From Acidobacteriota bacterium (GTDB taxonomy: Bacteria > Acidobacteriota > UBA4820 > DSQY01), in contig JBMFSH010000012.1 of the NCBI GenBank assembly GCA_049967655.1, forward strand, positions 5,945 through 69,944: a DNA stretch of 64,000 nucleotides, written 5' to 3'. The stretch's first letter is position 1, and the number at the start of each line of letters is the position of its first letter. Positions 28,394 through 43,890 of the stretch are shown piece by piece. Both the position numbers and the translations under genes were made by a program. The notes beneath the pieces were generated by a model. It was given only the letters and a program-made list of their open reading frames with translations. It did no database searches and was not told where the DNA came from.

Positions 28394-28813
28394 ATGAAGT
28401 CGCACCGGGAGACCCTGACCATCGAGACGCCCACCCGGCGGGCCTTCCTCAACATCACGGACCGGGTCCAGGCCGCCGTGGCGGCCAGCGGAATCCGCGA
28501 GGGGCTGTGCCTGGTCAACGCCATGCACATCACCGCCAGCGTCTTCATCAACGACGACGAATCCGGGCTCCACCAGGACTACGAGGAGTGGCTCGAGGGG
28601 CTGGCCCCGCACGAGCCCGTGAGCCGGTACCGGCACAACCGCACGGGAGAGGACAACGGCGACGCCCACCTCAAGCGGCAGGTCATGGGCCGCGAGGTGG
28701 TGGTGGCCGTCACGGGCGGGCGGCTGGACTTCGGCCCTTGGGAGCAGATCTTCTACGGCGAGTTCGACGGGCGCCGGCCCAAGCGGGTGCTCATCAAGAT
28801 CATCGGAGAGTAG
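28394..28813 (+). CDS. YjbQ/UPF0047 family protein (secondary thiamine-phosphate synthase-like)
   Basis: 139 aa, YjbQ family sequence. Confidence 0.75.
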
Positions 28814-28819
28814 CGGGGC

Positions 28820-29284
28820 ATGGCGCGAGAATCCAGGAGACACCCGGGCAGAAAGCGGGAGCGGAAGCTCACCCGCTTCAGCATGAGCCGCAAGAGCGAG
28901 GTGGCTCTGGCCGCCGTGGGCGTTTTCGTCATCGCCCTGGTGCTGGGCTTTCTGTGGCTCATCCTGTCACCCCTCTGGCTCAAGCCCGGCCCCGCCGAGG
29001 TGGCCGCGCGGCAGGTCGCCCTGGAGCGCGACGCCCAGGTGTGGCGGGAGGCCAGGGAGAGCGGACTCCTGCTGAAGGTTCAGCAGGACCGCCAGGAGCT
29101 CTTCGTGGACGCGGCCAAATGGAACGCCCTGCTGCCCACCGAGCACGCGCCGCGGGTCGCGGCCATCGCCGCCCATCTGGGCTGGGACTGGGCCTTCATC
29201 TTCGACGCCTCCACCGGCCGGCAGCTGGGCTGGTACGTGAAGGACAAGGGCTACCACTCCACGCCCAATTCTTCCCCTCGCTAG
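28820..29284 (+). CDS. hypothetical membrane protein
   Basis: one TM helix; start ambiguous (28820 or about 28883). Confidence 0.4.
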   Translation: MARESRRHPGRKRERKLTRFSMSRKSEVALAAVGVFVIALVLGFLWLILSPLWLKPGPAEVAARQVALERDAQVWREARESGLLLKVQQDRQELFVDAAKWNALLPTEHAPRVAAIAAHLGWDWAFIFDASTGRQLGWYVKDKGYHSTPNSSPR

Positions 29285-36551: not shown

Positions 36552-38564
36552 TCACGGGCATCTCGTGGAATCGTAAGATTGCCCGTCGTCAATGGGCGTA
36601 TCCTTCTGATCGTGCGGAACGCCAACTCTCACGGTGCCGCTGCAAGTGCCACCCTTCCCATCGCCGGCGGTGAACGAGATGGCATACACACGCCCGTTGC
36701 CCGTCCCCGAGCGCTCGGCGCGCACCTGCGCCTGGGCAGAACCCACTCCAAAGCCGTCGGGGCACGTATCTCCGTCGCCCAAGCCATTGGTGGGCTCGTC
36801 CTGCGTGATGCCGGTGATCTGGATGGTCACCGGATCGCCGTCCGGATCGGTGACGCCCGTGATCGCGATGGAGACCAGCTTGTGGTTGGGGGGCCAGAGC
36901 AGGGCCGGGCTTGCCGAGGCCTGGCTGCAATCGGGAGGGCGGTTAGGAGGCATCACGCCGGTCGCCACTTGAAGCTGGTTCGACGCGCAATTGTTGCTTT
37001 CGTTCGTCTCGAAGACCTGGTGGTCCGCGTCCGCGCAGGCGTCGAGGTAGTAATTGCCAGCGGGCAGGTTCGGCGGAATGACGTAGGGCGCCGTTTCCAC
37101 CGAGCTCTTCTCGCCAGGGGCGAGGGCAGGGATGGCGCGTTCCCCGACGACCGTCGCGGTTGCCGGATCGACCGGACTCGAGGTCGAGAGGTAATATCGC
37201 GTGATGCTCGGGCCGGCGGGGAGAATCCCTATGTTCATCGTCGTCTCGGTAATGTAAAAGGTCTGGCCCGGGGCGGAGATGAGCAGCGGGGGAATGAAGA
37301 TTGGCACGGTGAGATCCGGTCCACCCGTCCAGGAGACCGTGACGGGTTCCGAGAAGACACCGTTGGCTGTGCAATCGGTGAGCGACTCGCCTTGTCGTCC
37401 GTGGCTCTTTCCGGTAGGTGTGCCCTTTCCTTTCGTGGCTGCGCCCTGCCGGGCGTACAACATTCCCGTGTTCGCCCGCAAGGTGTCCACACCGACCTTG
37501 GTACCTGTATACGTAAAGCTGAAGGTCCCGTCGCCCGCCGTGGTCCCGTGGGTTCCCTGGCCGCGCTGTGGGCCGTCGGTCACCTCAATGTCGACGTAGT
37601 TGTTCGCGATGGGCTGGCCGTTGGCGACATTCACCAACATGGCCGTCGCGGTATGTGGCTGGCCAATCGCATGCGTGGCTGACGCCGGTGTCAGGGTGAG
37701 CTTGGGCGCGCAGGGCCAAGGAAGATTCTGTTGCAGGTAGAGGGCGTTGTAGTACACGAGCGCGTAGCCCTCGCTCGTGCGCTGCGAGGGCGCCGCGGCC
37801 TGAGTCGCATCGATCACCGCCTGGAGCTTCGCGTTCACCATGGCTTGGTCCTGCGCTACCGCCGCTTGACGGGCGGCGGAAAGGTTGGATTGAATCGTCG
37901 AGAGCAAGGCCGCATCCGAAATCCATCCAAGCTGGCCGGCGGTGGCAACATCGCTAATGAATTCGTTCCAATGAGCAAACGAGCCTGGATCCACACCCAA
38001 GGGACCAAGGGTCTGAACTTTTCGGATATAGCTGAGATTGATCGGATCCGATTCGCTGGGGAGCAACTCCCCCCCCTCGTAGGTAGCCAATGCATCGAGG
38101 TAGGGTTGGATCCATGGGTTGATCCACGCTTCACGAATGGTGGGTGGCCGCGGCGACTGGAAGCTGAACGGACCGGCACTCGTACCAGGTGATGGCGGGT
38201 TGGGCATATCATCCCACATCGCCCAGTCCACGAAGGGCTGATTGGGCACGAGAACGAAAGGTGGTTGAGGGGGATTCGAGACAATACCTATTGGTGCCCA
38301 GCCTGCCGACGAACCGAGCGTGACGGAGGTTTCTGCCCCGCCTACGACAATCTCAAAATCCGAGAGCTCTGCGGTGTTTGAGGCTGGGTTGGTCAAGGTA
38401 TATCCGTACATGTACGAGCCTGAATTGGGATCCTCGGTGACTGCCACTTGTATGGTTATGCCTTGAAACACTGGCGGTACGGGCTGCGCCCGAAGCGCCA
38501 CCGAGAACAGAGAGACCATGAGCCAGCCCAGGCAAGCAGTACGCCCACAAAATTTTGTAACCAT
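36552..38564 (-). CDS. secreted CARDB-domain protein with conserved C-terminal LWPPNHK…LRAERSG…VPHDQ domain
   Basis: signal peptide; CARDB motif …YYLDACADADHQVFETNESNN…; lower GC than surroundings. Confidence 0.65.
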   Translation of the reverse strand: MVTKFCGRTACLGWLMVSLFSVALRAQPVPPVFQGITIQVAVTEDPNSGSYMYGYTLTNPASNTAELSDFEIVVGGAETSVTLGSSAGWAPIGIVSNPPQPPFVLVPNQPFVDWAMWDDMPNPPSPGTSAGPFSFQSPRPPTIREAWINPWIQPYLDALATYEGGELLPSESDPINLSYIRKVQTLGPLGVDPGSFAHWNEFISDVATAGQLGWISDAALLSTIQSNLSAARQAAVAQDQAMVNAKLQAVIDATQAAAPSQRTSEGYALVYYNALYLQQNLPWPCAPKLTLTPASATHAIGQPHTATAMLVNVANGQPIANNYVDIEVTDGPQRGQGTHGTTAGDGTFSFTYTGTKVGVDTLRANTGMLYARQGAATKGKGTPTGKSHGRQGESLTDCTANGVFSEPVTVSWTGGPDLTVPIFIPPLLISAPGQTFYITETTMNIGILPAGPSITRYYLSTSSPVDPATATVVGERAIPALAPGEKSSVETAPYVIPPNLPAGNYYLDACADADHQVFETNESNNCASNQLQVATGVMPPNRPPDCSQASASPALLWPPNHKLVSIAITGVTDPDGDPVTIQITGITQDEPTNGLGDGDTCPDGFGVGSAQAQVRAERSGTGNGRVYAISFTAGDGKGGTCSGTVRVGVPHDQKDTPIDDGQSYDSTRCP

Positions 38565-38789
38565 GGCTCAGCCTCCAACCAATTCATAGTGGATTTCTTG
38601 TTTTTCATAGCGAGTAAGCAGCAGGGCTGCTGCGAGGCGATTGAGAAGGTTCTCCTGAACGCGGGCTGCCGCTCCGCCCCCGATCCACGGGGCAGCAGTG
38701 GTTCACGTCGGCGGACGTGCCCACCCGGTGGAGCTCATGTGGGCAGTCCCAGTTGTCCTGGAAATCCAAAATACCCCCCCAGGGAAGGC

Positions 38790-39553
38790 TCATATCGTTG
38801 AAGGAAAGCCTGACCCACACCCCGTCATGTTGTGGTAGCTGGCCCGGTAATTCTGGGCGAGTTGCACCAGCTTTTTGGCCATCGCTGGTTTCACGTAATC
38901 ACCCACAGGATGATCCCCGGCATTACGGACAACCACGAGAGAGGGATCCGAAGGGAGTTCGACAAGCCCGTCCACGTGAAGCCGGACGCCCATTTGAGAG
39001 TAGCCCGTGCGGCCGCTGGGGTCGGAAGGGTCCACGTGCCAGCAGTCGTCAGGAACAATGTGGTAGTTAGGGGAGCGATGCACCGGGCTGTGATTCGAAC
39101 CACTCCGGAGCACTGTGGATGGTACTTGTAGCCTGTCCATATTTGTCCGCCGGTGTCGCCGGTGAAGGTGTTCGTATCCGCAACACCCGAGAGATCCGAA
39201 TACAGACCGCCCGTCGTCATGGCGACGTCGCCCGAGCGCGGGTGGACGTGACCGCCTTCGTAATACAGAATCGTGGCGGGATCTTGCAGGCCATCTGTGG
39301 AAAAGAACTCTGTCCAGTCCTCGTGGCAATTCAGCGGTAATCCGGTGTAGAGGTCGTAGCACCCTACCTGAAAGGCGTCGAAGTCAAGTGGCACTGCGCG
39401 CAGGGAGGAACACTTCCCATAAGTCTGTGGGATGGTAGGGCTTGCGTCCCACCAGTACCAGGGCAGCTCGGTTTGAGCGTATGTTCCCAGGCTCAGTACA
39501 AGAGTAAGCAGGGTAACCGTGAGAATGACCGTGGTGCCGCCGAGACGAACCAT
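38790..39553 (-). pseudogene. secreted hypothetical hydrolase-like protein, frameshifted
   Basis: coding sense switches frame near 39100-39135 between overlapping ORFs 38891..39613 and 38790..39362; strong AAGGAGG RBS before ATG 39553. Confidence 0.5.
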
Positions 39554-39724
39554 ACAAACCTCCTTTCCAGGCAACGAGCTAGTTGATGGTATGTATGGTC
39601 CCCAATTCTTCACATATCAATGGTTTCTGTGTTGAAACCCCTCCCTGTCTTACCGCCCCTCCTCCGTACAAGTCACGTCCCCCGCCCGTGGTGTGGTATG
39701 CTGAAGTCATCTCCGGAGGACTTC

Positions 39725-42634
39725 ATGACACCCATCGAGTTCATCCACAAGTGGCGGGACGCGGCGTTGTCGGAGCGCTCGGCGTGCCAGCAGCACTTTC
39801 TGGACCTGTGCGAGCTGGTGGGCCACCCGAAGCCGGCGGAGGTGGACAAGACGGGCGAGTCCTTCACCTTCGAGCGCGGCGCGGCCAAGACCGACGGCGG
39901 CGACGGCTGGGCGGACGTCTGGAAGCGGGGCTTCTTCGGCTGGGAGTACAAGGGCCGCCACGCCAACCTCGCCAAGGCCTACGGCCAGCTCCTCCAGTAC
40001 CGGGAGGCGCTGGAGAACCCGCCCCTGCTCGTGGTGTGCGACATGGACCGCCTGGAGATCCACACCAACTTCACGGGGACGCGCACCGAGGTCCACGCGC
40101 TGCGCCTCGTGGAGCTGGACATGCCCCGCAGCCGGGAGATTCTGCACGCCCTCTTCTTCGACCCGGAGAAGCTCCGCCCCGGCGCCACCAGCGCCTCCAT
40201 CACCACCGAGGCCGCCGCCCACATCGGCGAGATCGCCCAGCGCCTGCGCGCCCGAGGCGAGCAGCCGGCCCAGGTGGCGCGCTTCCTCGACCGCCTCGTC
40301 TTCTGCCTCTTCGCCGAGGACATCGGCCTGCTGCCCGAGGCGCTCTTCTCGCGCCTCCTCCACAAGACCCGGGACGATCCGCCCCGCTTCCAGAAGCTCG
40401 TCTCGGACCTCTTCGAGGCCATGGCCAAGGGCGGCGATTTCGGCATGGACACGATCCGCTGGTTCAACGGCTCGCTCTTCGCCCACGGGCCCGTCCTGCC
40501 GCTGGAGGAGGGGGAGCTGGCCATCCTCGACCGGGCCGCCGCCCTGGACTGGAGCGCCGTGGACGCCTCCATCTTCGGCACCCTCTTCGAGCGGGGCCTC
40601 GACCCGGACAAGCGCTCCCAGCTCGGCGCCCACTACACGAGCCGCGCCGACATCGAGGCCCTGGTGGAGCCCGTGGTCATGGCGCCCCTTCGCCGCCGCT
40701 GGCAGGAGGTGCGCGCGCGGGCCGAGGAGGCCCTGGCGGCCCTCGACCGCCGGCCGGGCCGCAAGGCCCTCACGCCGCAGGCCGCCGCGCGCATCCGCGA
40801 CAGGGCCTCGGGCATCGCGGGCGCCTTCCTCTTCGAGCTGCACACCCTCACCGTCCTGGACCCGGCCTGCGGCTCGGGCAACTTCCTCTACGTGACGCTC
40901 CAGAAGCTCAAGGACCTGGAGAAGGAGGTCGGCGTCTGGGCCGTGGGGCGAGGGCTCGGTCAGTTCCTGCCCATGGTCCACCCGCACCAGCTCTACGGCA
41001 TCGAGGTGAACCCCTACGCCCACGAGCTGGCCTAGATGACCGTCTGGATCGGCTACCTCCAGTGGATCAGCGCCAACGGCTTCGGCCTGCCCCACGACCC
41101 CGTCCTCGAATCGCTGGAGCGCCACTTCCTCTGCCGCGACGCCATCCTCGACCTGGGCGACCCGGATCATCCGAAGGAGCCCGAGTGGCCCGAGGCCGAC
41201 TGCATCGTCGGCAACCCGCCCTTCCTGGGGGGGAAGATCCTGAGGCGCGAGCTGGGCGATTCGTACGTGGACCGGCTCTTCGCCCTGTGGGACGGCCGCG
41301 TGCCGCGCGAGGCCGACCTGTGCGCCTACTGGTTCGAGAAGGCGAGGGACCAGGTGGAGGCGGGGCGCTGCCGGCGCGCCGACCTGCTCGCCACCCAGGG
41401 CATCCGCGGCGGGGCCAACCGCAAGGTCCTGGAGCGGATCAAAGAGACGGGCGAGATCTTCTTCGCCGAGAGCGACCGCCCGTGGATCCTCGACGGCGCC
41501 AACGTCCACGTCAGCATGGTGGGCTTCGACCGGGGGGAGGAGACGGCGCGCCTCCTGGACGGAAAGGCCGTGCCGGTGATCCACGCCAACCTCACCGCCG
41601 CGGCGGACACCACCCAGGCGGCGCGGCTTCCCGAGAACCGGGGCCTCGCCTACATGGGCGACACCAAGAGGGGGCCCTTCGATATTCCCGAGGCCCGCGC
41701 CCTCGACTGGCTTCAGAGGCCCAACCCGCACGGGCGACCCAACTCGGACGTGGTCGTGCCCTGGGTCAACGGCTTGGACGTGACGGGCCGGCCGCGCTCC
41801 CTGTGGATCGTGGACTTCGGCGCGGCGATTGCCGAGGAGGCTGCGGCCCGGTACGAGGCTCCCTTCGAGTACGTGCGCGAGCGGGTGAAACCGGAACGGG
41901 ATAAGTCGCGAAGTACGGTTGGGATTTGGTGGCAACATGAACGAGCCAGGCTGGACATGCGGGAGGCGTTGGCGAACGTGCCGCGCTTCCTGTCCACGGT
42001 GGCCGTCTCCAAGCATCGGCTCTTCACCTGGATGCGATCGCCCACATTGCCGGACCACCAGGTCTTCGCCTTTGCCGGCTCGGACGACTATCTCTTCGCC
42101 CTCCTCCACTCGCGCTTCCACGAGGCGTGGGCGCTGAAGTTGGGCACGCGGTTGGAGACAAGGCCCCGCTACACCCCCACGACCTGCTTCGAGACCTTCC
42201 CCTTCCCCTGGCCGCCGGGACACGAGCCGGCGGAGGACCCGCGCGTGCGGGCCATCGCCGACGCCGCCCGGGAGCTGAACCGCCTCCGGGAGGGCTGGCT
42301 CAACCCGCCCGAGTGGACGCGGGAGGAGATCCTCACCTTCCCCGGCTCCGCGGAGGGCCCCTGGGGCCGCTTCGTCACGGAGCCCGACGCGCGCGGCATC
42401 GGCACCGTCCGCTACCCCCGTCTCGTCCCCAGGGACGAGGCCAGCGCCGTGGCCCTCAAGGCCCGCACCCTCACCGGCCTCTACAACCAGCGCCCCACTT
42501 GGCTCGCCAACGCGCACCAAACCCTCGACGCCGCCGTCGCCGCCGCCTACGCCTGGCCCCCCGACCTCCCCGACGAGCAGATCCTCCAACGCCTCCTCGC
42601 CCTCAACCGCGAGAGGGCGGGGAAGAGTGTTTAG
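39725..42634 (+). pseudogene. MmeI-family Type IIL restriction-modification enzyme, interrupted by in-frame TAG at 41033-41035
   Basis: N-terminal nuclease motif D-x9-EYK (DVWKRGFFGWEYKG), MTase motif I VLDPACGSGNFL (ORF1), motif IV IVGNPPFLGG (ORF2); ORF1 39620..41035 and ORF2 41036..42634 are in the same frame; alternative start 39698. Confidence 0.7.
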
Positions 42635-42708
42635 TTATCCGTTAGCAGCGAGGCACTAGCCGCCGGGTCGAAAAGGTTGGGAGCAATTGCTGCTTAGAGG
42701 AGGGTCCT

Positions 42709-43404
42709 ATGGCACTGAGGGTTAAGAGAAGAACAGTATCCGATTTCGTTAGGCGAAAGGTCATTCACCTCGCGGGCAACCGGTGCTCGTTTTGCCCGGA
42801 GGACGACGTTAGCATCCTGCAACCGCACCACCTCACCGCTGTTTCCGAGGGCGGTTCCGACGACTGGGAGAACTAGATCGCAGTGTGTCCAACCTGCCAC
42901 GAAAAGATCCACAGGGGAACGATATCTACTGCTGAGGCCCTTGCCAGAAAGGCCCTGCAGCCGGTGCCGTCAACTCGCCGCGAGCAAAGCAAGGGCACGG
43001 CGCCTATCGTGGAGATCCAAGGCGACTTGCATCAAAGCACGGTGGCTGTGGGTGCCACCGTGAACATCCGGACCAGTGGTCGAGGGAAGCCGAAGCTACT
43101 GCCGGCACCGGACTCCCTGGGGGCAGCGCCCTGTAAGCTTCGATATTGCCGCTATCTAGTCGACAGATACCATGAATTCAAGCGATCAGAAGTGGGAAAG
43201 GACCAGATAAACTACGCGATTCTCCACGGTTCCATCAAGAGGGAATTCAAGGCCGCCCTTCCGAACATTCCGGCGCACCGCTTCGAAGATGTAGCGGAGT
43301 ATCTGCAAGGCAGAATCCTAAAGAGCAAGGTTGGCCGCAATCTCAACGCTAAAGGGCAGAAAGTGTTTGAGGACTTCGAGGAATTCCGTCAAAGGCACTG
43401 CTGA
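42709..43404 (+). pseudogene. HNH endonuclease with C-terminal domain of unknown function, in-frame TAG at 42874-42876
   Basis: CSFCPEDD…HHLTAVSEGGSDDWEN*IAVCPTCHEKIH is a textbook HNH motif broken at the conserved Leu position; GGAGGG RBS; lower GC. Confidence 0.6.
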
Positions 43405-43890
43405 CCGCGGCGACGGCCTGGGGTGGCCCCGTATGGTGCATCTCGCCCGCCCCGCAGGGGCGGCATGCGTCCCGACGCCGGTGGGCCTTATGTGAGGAAG
43501 GTGAGGTGACCACACCGCGAGCGTACTCAAGGTACGCTGAGGATGTGGGCGCCGACGCCTGACGACACAGAAGGTCCGCCGCCGTCGGCGCACTCTTCGA
43601 GGGGGTGGGGACGGTCCTTCGAAGGCACGAGAGCCGGCCGCCCGAAGGGCGTGCCAGGACGCGCGCGGCGGCGGGGAGGAAGGCGCGGGGGCAGGAGATG
43701 CCGAGACCCCGAGTCAGGAAACCGCTGGAGGAGGCCACGGGGTGACGCTCCATGCTGGAGCGCCTTTCGCCCCGGTGGCGCCGCGTCTTGGCCAGGGCGC
43801 CGGAGGCGCCCGGCGGCTCGCCGCGGTGAGGCGGGAGCCCCTTTGACGCATCGCGCCGGGGAGGGCTCCTGCGAGGCGCCGGCGAGGGGC

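Follow-up and report, generated by a model that had tools for sequence, protein, structure and literature searches.

The stretch from position 39725 to 42634 on the forward strand of the window (the whole 64,000 nucleotides of DNA analysed, part of a 75,745 bp contig of an Acidobacteriota metagenome-assembled genome, MAG) very probably represents a single MmeI-family (Type IIL/IIG) restriction-modification (R-M) gene that was recently disabled by one point mutation. Its appearance as two open reading frames is most likely due to an ordinary recent gene knock-out rather than to the design of a two-piece enzyme.

Translation of 39725-42634 yielded 969 codons with a sole internal stop, at codon 437. 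The sequence-only reading had placed the ORFs 39620..41035 and 41036..42634 in one frame; the ORF list bears this out, and the two jointly encode a 969-residue MmeI-family protein. At 41030-41041 the sequence reads GCC TAG ATG ACC, and the TAG at 41033-41035 is the only separator of ORF1 and ORF2. The start of ORF1 had been put at 39620 and was corrected to the ATG at 39725: a Shine-Dalgarno sequence, GGAGG, can be read at 39715..39719 (+), 5 nt before this ATG, the protein then begins with MTPIEF like its homologs, and the 436-aa GenBank protein is identical to the translation of 39725-41032. The terminal stop of ORF2 is a genuine TAG. The contrast in GC content that had been described was also found, with 0.69-0.74 for the gene and 0.57-0.62 for the flanks (38000-39500 and 42500-43500).

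Pfam searches assigned to the N-terminal fragment (39725..41035, +; 436 aa followed by the TAG) a PD-(D/E)XK nuclease, a helical spacer and the methyltransferase (MTase) motifs X, I and II, and to the C-terminal fragment (41036..42634, +; 532 aa) the MTase domain from motif IV onwards, the target-recognition domain (TRD) and a C-terminal helical domain. ORF1 matched MmeI_N, MmeI_hel and positions 16-78 of 259, the first quarter, of MmeI_Mtase; ORF2 matched MmeI_Mtase 138-257 and MmeI_TRD above the cut-off and MmeI_C below it (21.7 bits vs a cut-off of 27). A phmmer comparison of the joined protein with the MmeI sequence of PDB 5HR4 gave an E value of 1.7e-49 (family threshold, E below 1e-20), over stretches covering query residues 3-603 and 780-853. 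For PADLOC, the intact homolog P0001 (83% identical) was used as query in place of the broken gene, and it was matched by REase_MTase_IIG at E 2e-266. The earlier assignment of the broken gene to the MmeI family is correct, as is the gene anatomy given with it.

The motifs named in the sequence-only reading, an intact D-x9-EYK, motif I in ORF1 and NPPF with the target-recognition region in ORF2, were all recovered from the translation and the Pfam matches. The nuclease catalytic motif D64-x9-E74-Y-K76 is encoded at 39914..39952 (+); its D, E and K are invariant in the best 120 homologs (120/120) and correspond to D70, E80 and K82 of MmeI (PMC2731913). MTase motif I, VLDPACGSGNFL (AdoMet binding; aa 377-388; 40853..40888, +), aligned to FFDPACGCGNFL of MmeI (PDB 5HR4). 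Motif IV, NPPF (aa 497-500; 41213..41224, +), is likewise invariant among the best 120 homologs and aligned to NPPF 481-484 of MmeI. The motif order is that of a gamma-class MTase: GAHYTS with H303, motif I at 377-388, NPPF at 497-500 and W587 within DRPWILDG, a His and a Trp of the adenine pocket being conserved in the gamma-class N6-adenine MTase of the MmeI family (PMC4833311). Members of this family are made of one uninterrupted nuclease-MTase-TRD chain, which here is broken by the in-frame TAG at codon 437; the window copy is therefore a disrupted family member, a pseudogene, and is not functional as encoded.

A search of 5.8 billion proteins returned 8000 matches, the best 120 of which were aligned with MAFFT and analysed. 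All 120 are single uninterrupted chains of 951-1276 aa with a query coverage of 97-100%, the window copy being the only one seen with a stop. The column of the stop is Gln in 120/120 of them. This answers the question raised in the sequence-only reading of which residue the TAG replaces; that the two halves might normally be separate genes, which the same reading had taken into account, finds no counterpart in these 120 unsplit proteins. MmeI itself, aligned from PDB 5HR4, has Gln at the same position, within IAQVALW. In a syntenic contig from a relative (L001; roughly 92-97% identical at the nucleotide level), which carries the best match, P0001, codon 437 is CAG. The TAG is the sole difference between the window and L001 over codons 412-454, a stretch reaching 75 nt upstream and 51 nt downstream of it. 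As the stop column is Gln in the homologs and the codon is CAG in L001, the TAG at 41033..41035 (+), which lies between motifs II (GIE) and IV of the MTase domain, was identified as a C-to-T nonsense mutation of Gln-437. When genome and metagenome collections were scanned for exact 35-mers carrying Y in place of the mutated base, the only matches were two distant homologs, both with CAG, and the TAG allele did not turn up a second time. Contig look-ups by the exact products of ORF1, ORF2 and the neighbouring oxidoreductase returned nothing.

The break looks recent from the state of the coding sequence, since the gene is otherwise undecayed. ORF1, before the stop, differs from L001 by 18 synonymous and 2 nonsynonymous changes (omega 0.036). 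After the stop, the differences from L001 in the conserved parts lie mostly at positions that vary across the family, and the last 225 codons, in the ORF2 region, gave an omega of 0.30 when compared with contig L005, which has the same TRD type. Of the 255 alignment columns with a conservation of 95% or more, the window sequence departs from 3, the stop among them; the median for the homologs is also 3. Recent inactivation was among the options offered in the sequence-only reading and is the one that the evidence (unsplit homologs with Gln, CAG in L001) supports. The undecayed state would fit equally well a young pseudogene or a gene still expressed by readthrough or as two fragments: with no sign of decay, one is left with a young mutation, an error or continued selection on the gene.

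In its intact form the gene would encode one chain of ~970 aa, with an N-terminal PD-(D/E)XK nuclease, a helical spacer, a gamma-class N6-adenine methyltransferase and a TRD. Characterised enzymes of the MmeI family cleave unmodified DNA in an AdoMet-dependent manner ~20 nt (20/18) from an asymmetric site and protect the host DNA by m6A on a single strand (PMC2731913, PMC4833311); by analogy, the intact enzyme would be expected to methylate one strand and to cleave ~20 nt away in the presence of AdoMet. The C-to-T transition converted the codon of the invariant Gln-437 from CAG to TAG in the middle of the methyltransferase fold, so that translation would end after 436 residues, with the nuclease and the AdoMet-binding motifs made but neither NPPF nor the DNA-recognition domain. 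Since such a product lacks the catalytic NPPF and the TRD, both methylation and site-specific cleavage should be lost. This loss of function of the split MmeI-like enzyme is inferred from domain logic.

A second nonsense mutation was found in the adjacent gene. A low-GC HNH endonuclease gene (42709..43407, +) begins 75 bases downstream of the MmeI-like gene and is split by an in-frame TAG at 42874-42876 (TTG to TAG). Its Pfam HNH match (E 1.5e-09, residues 26-69) spans the stop and is divided by it at codon 56, in the middle of the HNH motif, which in an HNH endonuclease should run as C-x2-C ... HH ... N ... C-x2-C-H on one chain. The only database homolog of this gene, P0121 (81% identity), is unbroken and has Leu where the stop lies, and five contigs (L004-L008) have TTG there; in the three longest (L004-L006) the HNH gene occupies the same place, directly downstream of an MmeI-like gene. 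The omega of the HNH gene against L005 was 0.20, which indicates that this break is also recent. No other split gene was found in the 64-kb window beyond these two. A candidate third one, 28394..28813 and 28820..29284 (same frame, TAG between), was rejected because its first ORF alone contains the whole UPF0047 profile.

Both ambers share the hexamer context CTAGAT, a post-hoc coincidence of ~2%, and the sole other CTAGAT in the window also lies within the HNH gene. A motif-specific basecalling artefact converting CCAGAT or CTTGAT to CTAGAT was considered and rejected, since 35 CCAGAT and 27 CTTGAT sites remain unconverted in the window.

Together with the disruption of the MmeI-like gene, the HNH nonsense mutation would leave the islet formed by the two genes switched off in this lineage. 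These data suggest a defence islet that was silenced either because selection on it had relaxed or because its cost or self-toxicity was selected against; the loss of a costly or toxic enzyme is plausible.

Among the other explanations, the one that survives best, although improbable, is that the TAG is a sequencing or assembly artefact, or a MAG consensus drawn from a minority allele, the real gene being intact with CAG. The sequence comes from a metagenome-assembled genome, the locus differs between strains, and the relatives' contigs are short and broken here, at just the kind of place where consensus problems are likeliest; the gene is otherwise perfectly conserved, and the TAG allele was absent from the other public contigs in the exact 35-mer scan. 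Such an error would however have to include two different changes, C to T and T to A, both creating stops and both in adjacent genes, while ~60 other genes are undisrupted. Random error would not cluster in this way, and the unconverted CCAGAT and CTTGAT sites show that there was no motif-wide conversion either. Because the two independent substitutions are confined to adjacent nuclease genes, a biological loss of the islet is favoured over random sequencing error.

A working two-piece enzyme, in which ribosomes would restart at the ATG next to the stop and the two fragments (436 and 532 aa) would assemble into an active R-M enzyme, is rather less probable still. Stop and start are directly adjacent in TAGATG, so that reinitiation could occur even without a Shine-Dalgarno sequence; neither half has decayed, GenBank annotates two CDSs, and natural and engineered split DNA methyltransferases exist. 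The homologs argue against it, as 0/120 of the best ones are split, and so does the position of the break, which falls inside the methyltransferase domain between motifs II and IV and removes an invariant Gln shared with MmeI. The ATG that the sequence-only reading had noted immediately after the stop turned out not to be a feature of the break. The column following the stop is Met in 94/120 of the best homologs and the codon is identical in L001; the ATG at 41036..41038 (+) is thus an inherited internal codon (Met-438), older than the stop, and not a new start. No Shine-Dalgarno sequence precedes it (the upstream sequence reads ...cacgagctggcctag), and no change accompanies the TAG relative to the intact L001 allele.

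About equally improbable is a leaky or conditional amber, by which near-cognate readthrough, or a suppressor tRNA encoded elsewhere in the genome or on a mobile element, would yield some full-length enzyme, with insertion of Gln restoring the wild type. The lost residue is indeed Gln, as inserted at TAG in known cases of recoding to Gln (PMC9523058, PMC10879173), the stop is followed by A, the gene is undecayed, and the codon is amber, not opal or ochre, in both neighbouring defence genes. Several observations weigh against this explanation. A crude GC-frame gene call gave 62 ORFs in the window, ending in 28 TGA, 26 TAG and 8 TAA stops, the 26 TAG including both the internal and the terminal TAG of the MmeI-like gene; seven ribosomal protein genes (S5, L18, S8, L5, L22, L2 and L17) have a TAG exactly at the end of the Pfam profile. 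With TAG ending ~40% of the genes, efficient suppression would be costly. No tRNA gene was found in the window, the TAG allele is absent from the closest relatives, and the HNH amber replaces Leu, not Gln. Amber is moreover the expected nonsense codon in a GC-rich gene such as this: 185 of the 256 possible single-base nonsense changes in the MmeI-like gene (72%) give TAG, and 45% of those in the HNH gene. Readthrough of a weak, near-cognate kind would put Gln back at the stop and yield a little wild-type enzyme, and this would be compatible with the main explanation.

Genome-wide recoding of TAG, or pyrrolysine-type decoding, was rejected, TAG being a frequent genuine terminator, in ribosomal protein genes as elsewhere; the genome-wide readthrough contemplated earlier is contradicted by these normal stops. 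In-frame TAG is restricted to the MmeI-like and HNH genes, a distribution that does not correspond to a TAG-to-Gln recoded system. As TAG is an ordinary and frequent terminator, recoding is excluded and efficient suppression is argued against. It is very unlikely that the two ambers act as a gate, keeping the nucleases silent until an amber suppressor arrives, for example a tRNA-CUA(Gln) of a TAG-recoded phage or mobile element; were this true, readthrough would bring back precisely the wild-type Gln in the MmeI-like enzyme and activate both nucleases, and CTAGAT would be part of the signal. A phase-variable on/off switch, the last of the options suggested earlier, can practically be set aside: R-M genes are often phase-variable in other bacteria, but a point substitution can revert no faster than the base mutation rate allows, and phase variation has no substrate here, as neither a homopolymer nor a short tandem repeat lies at 41033 or close to it. 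Weak repeats were seen only at 42195-42209 and 42525-42547.

The recently disabled MmeI-like gene lies in a locus that varies between strains. L001 is syntenic with the window: in both, genes for a CARDB protein and a hypothetical protein lie on the upstream side, and those for an FAD oxidoreductase, a Kdo-family kinase and a radical-SAM protein on the downstream side. The two are about 91-98% identical at the DNA level. Within the MmeI-like gene, DNA identity to L001 is ~98% in the N-terminal part and ~95.5% in the C-terminal part. Between them, amino acid identity falls to ~45% in a segment that begins immediately behind NPPF and extends through the TRD (~41231-42170). Comparison with L001 and L004-L006 marks this segment (41231..42170, +), the second half of the MTase domain together with the TRD, as a mosaic specificity segment exchanged between close relatives. 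Over ~1.85-1.95 kb of downstream sequence, L004, L005 and L006 show 99.6-100% mutual identity. On the upstream side of breakpoints near window positions 42072 and 42170, they fall, with the window and L001, into three TRD alleles (L004; L005 and the window; L001 and L006). The downstream gene varies as well: the place held by the HNH gene in the window and L004-L006 is taken by a DUF3800 gene in L001. One metagenome assembly yielded both L001 and L005.

Judged from these contigs, the MmeI-like and HNH genes are a strain-variable defence islet, with at least three TRD alleles and two different downstream genes in the relatives. Neither silent TRD cassettes nor inverted repeats were detected in the 64-kb window by tblastn and blastn, and no recombinase was found there; for this reason the TRD swap looks like allelic recombination between strains that changes specificity, and not like a shufflon. 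The locus offers a small, clean example of the evolution of a single-chain R-M enzyme within a population, in which near-identical strains swap a specificity segment and a downstream gene, and point mutations have disabled both nucleases of one strain.

The two halves are present in GenBank as MGC8723508.1 (ORF1) and MGC8723509.1 (ORF2), both named "type IIL restriction-modification enzyme MmeI", so the family assignment is already public; other proteins of the same contig include L2 (MGC8723542.1), S8 (MGC8723531.1) and the oxidoreductase (MGC8723511.1). What is absent from the record is that the two CDSs are one broken gene. In surveys of defence systems or methylomes, MGC8723508.1 and MGC8723509.1 should be treated as one pseudogene, which avoids counting the halves as two MmeI-like enzymes or as a methyltransferase-only protein. 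The gene belongs to a well-known R-M family and was inactivated recently, and its value is mostly one of housekeeping. An enzyme shown to be active despite the amber would be of real interest; nothing here points in that direction.

Partial similarity to the methyltransferases of multi-gene defence systems was confined to the MTase core. BREX PglX and DISARM DrmMI share a homologous MTase-TRD core with the MmeI-like gene (PADLOC DrmMI, E 4.6e-74; PglX matches weak), but unlike it they have no N-terminal PD-(D/E)XK nuclease and act in multi-gene systems. No BREX or DISARM partner genes were found beside the MmeI-like gene, and membership of BREX, DISARM or MADS was rejected, given partial similarity of the MTase core only and no partner genes. 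The exchange of the segment from just after NPPF to the TRD end resembles the TRD exchange described for single-chain R-M enzymes and for Type I HsdS (domain movement; PMC3983042, PMC2731914).

The closest known proteins are those of a ~970-aa subfamily annotated as "class I SAM-dependent DNA methyltransferase / YeeA" (PADLOC REase_MTase_IIG, PDLC03627); the joined window protein is 57-83% identical over its full length to the best 120 proteins. Their hosts include Acidobacteriota, Deferrisoma, Brocadiia and Planctomycetes, among others, and the invariant nuclease and MTase motifs are common to all of the best 120, each of which is uninterrupted, unlike the window copy. MmeI of Methylophilus methylotrophus (PDB 5HR4) has the same five domains in the same order: PD-(D/E)XK nuclease, helical spacer, gamma-class m6A MTase, TRD and C-terminal helices. 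D-x9-E-x-K, the motif I residues and NPPF are common to both, and His314 and Trp570 of MmeI are H303 and W587 here. The relationship is nevertheless distant, as the phmmer E value indicates, with a TRD that is only weakly alignable, and the reading frame that is continuous in MmeI is interrupted in the window by TAG.

The HNH endonuclease gene located directly downstream from the MmeI-like gene (42709-43407, forward strand) was found to contain one in-frame amber codon, at 42874-42876, where TTG is changed to TAG within the HNH motif. The corresponding codon is TTG in all five contigs of relatives that carry the HNH gene (L004-L008). An intact homolog, P0121, 81% identical, occupies the same place in the three longest of these (L004-L006), 3' of an MmeI-like gene. 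In L001, a syntenic contig in which the MmeI-like gene is not split, the HNH gene is replaced by a DUF3800 gene.

The hexamer CTAGAT occurs only three times in the 64 kb, at 41032-41037, 42873-42878 and 43154-43159 (reverse strand), all inside 2.1 kb, against approximately 8 expected across the whole window from shuffling. Two of the three sites contain the in-frame ambers of the MmeI-like and HNH genes, and at each of the three a single base distinguishes the window from close relatives.

TAG terminates approximately 40% of the crude gene calls in the whole window, unusually frequent for a genome of approximately 70% GC; the genes ending in TAG include seven ribosomal protein genes, in an operon at 49.8-63.1 kb.

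In the public record the halves of the MmeI-like gene are annotated not as a single pseudogene but as two proteins under one MmeI name, GenBank MGC8723508.1 (window 39725-41032) and MGC8723509.1 (window 41036-42631).

Upstream from the MmeI-like gene, on the reverse strand (36552-39613), lie genes for a CARDB/Big_1 repeat protein of 670 aa and for a 240-aa protein that gave no family match. Their DNA is lower in GC (0.57-0.66) and yet conserved in L001; identity to that contig drops to about 80% across one stretch of approximately 600 bp (38168-38767).

The specificity segment, comprising the methyltransferase half that follows the NPPF motif and the target recognition domain (window 41231-42170; L001 7360-8312; L004 1-286; L005 1-168; L006 1-147), is mosaic, with at least three alleles, two of them from one metagenome, on downstream backgrounds that are 99.6-100% identical.
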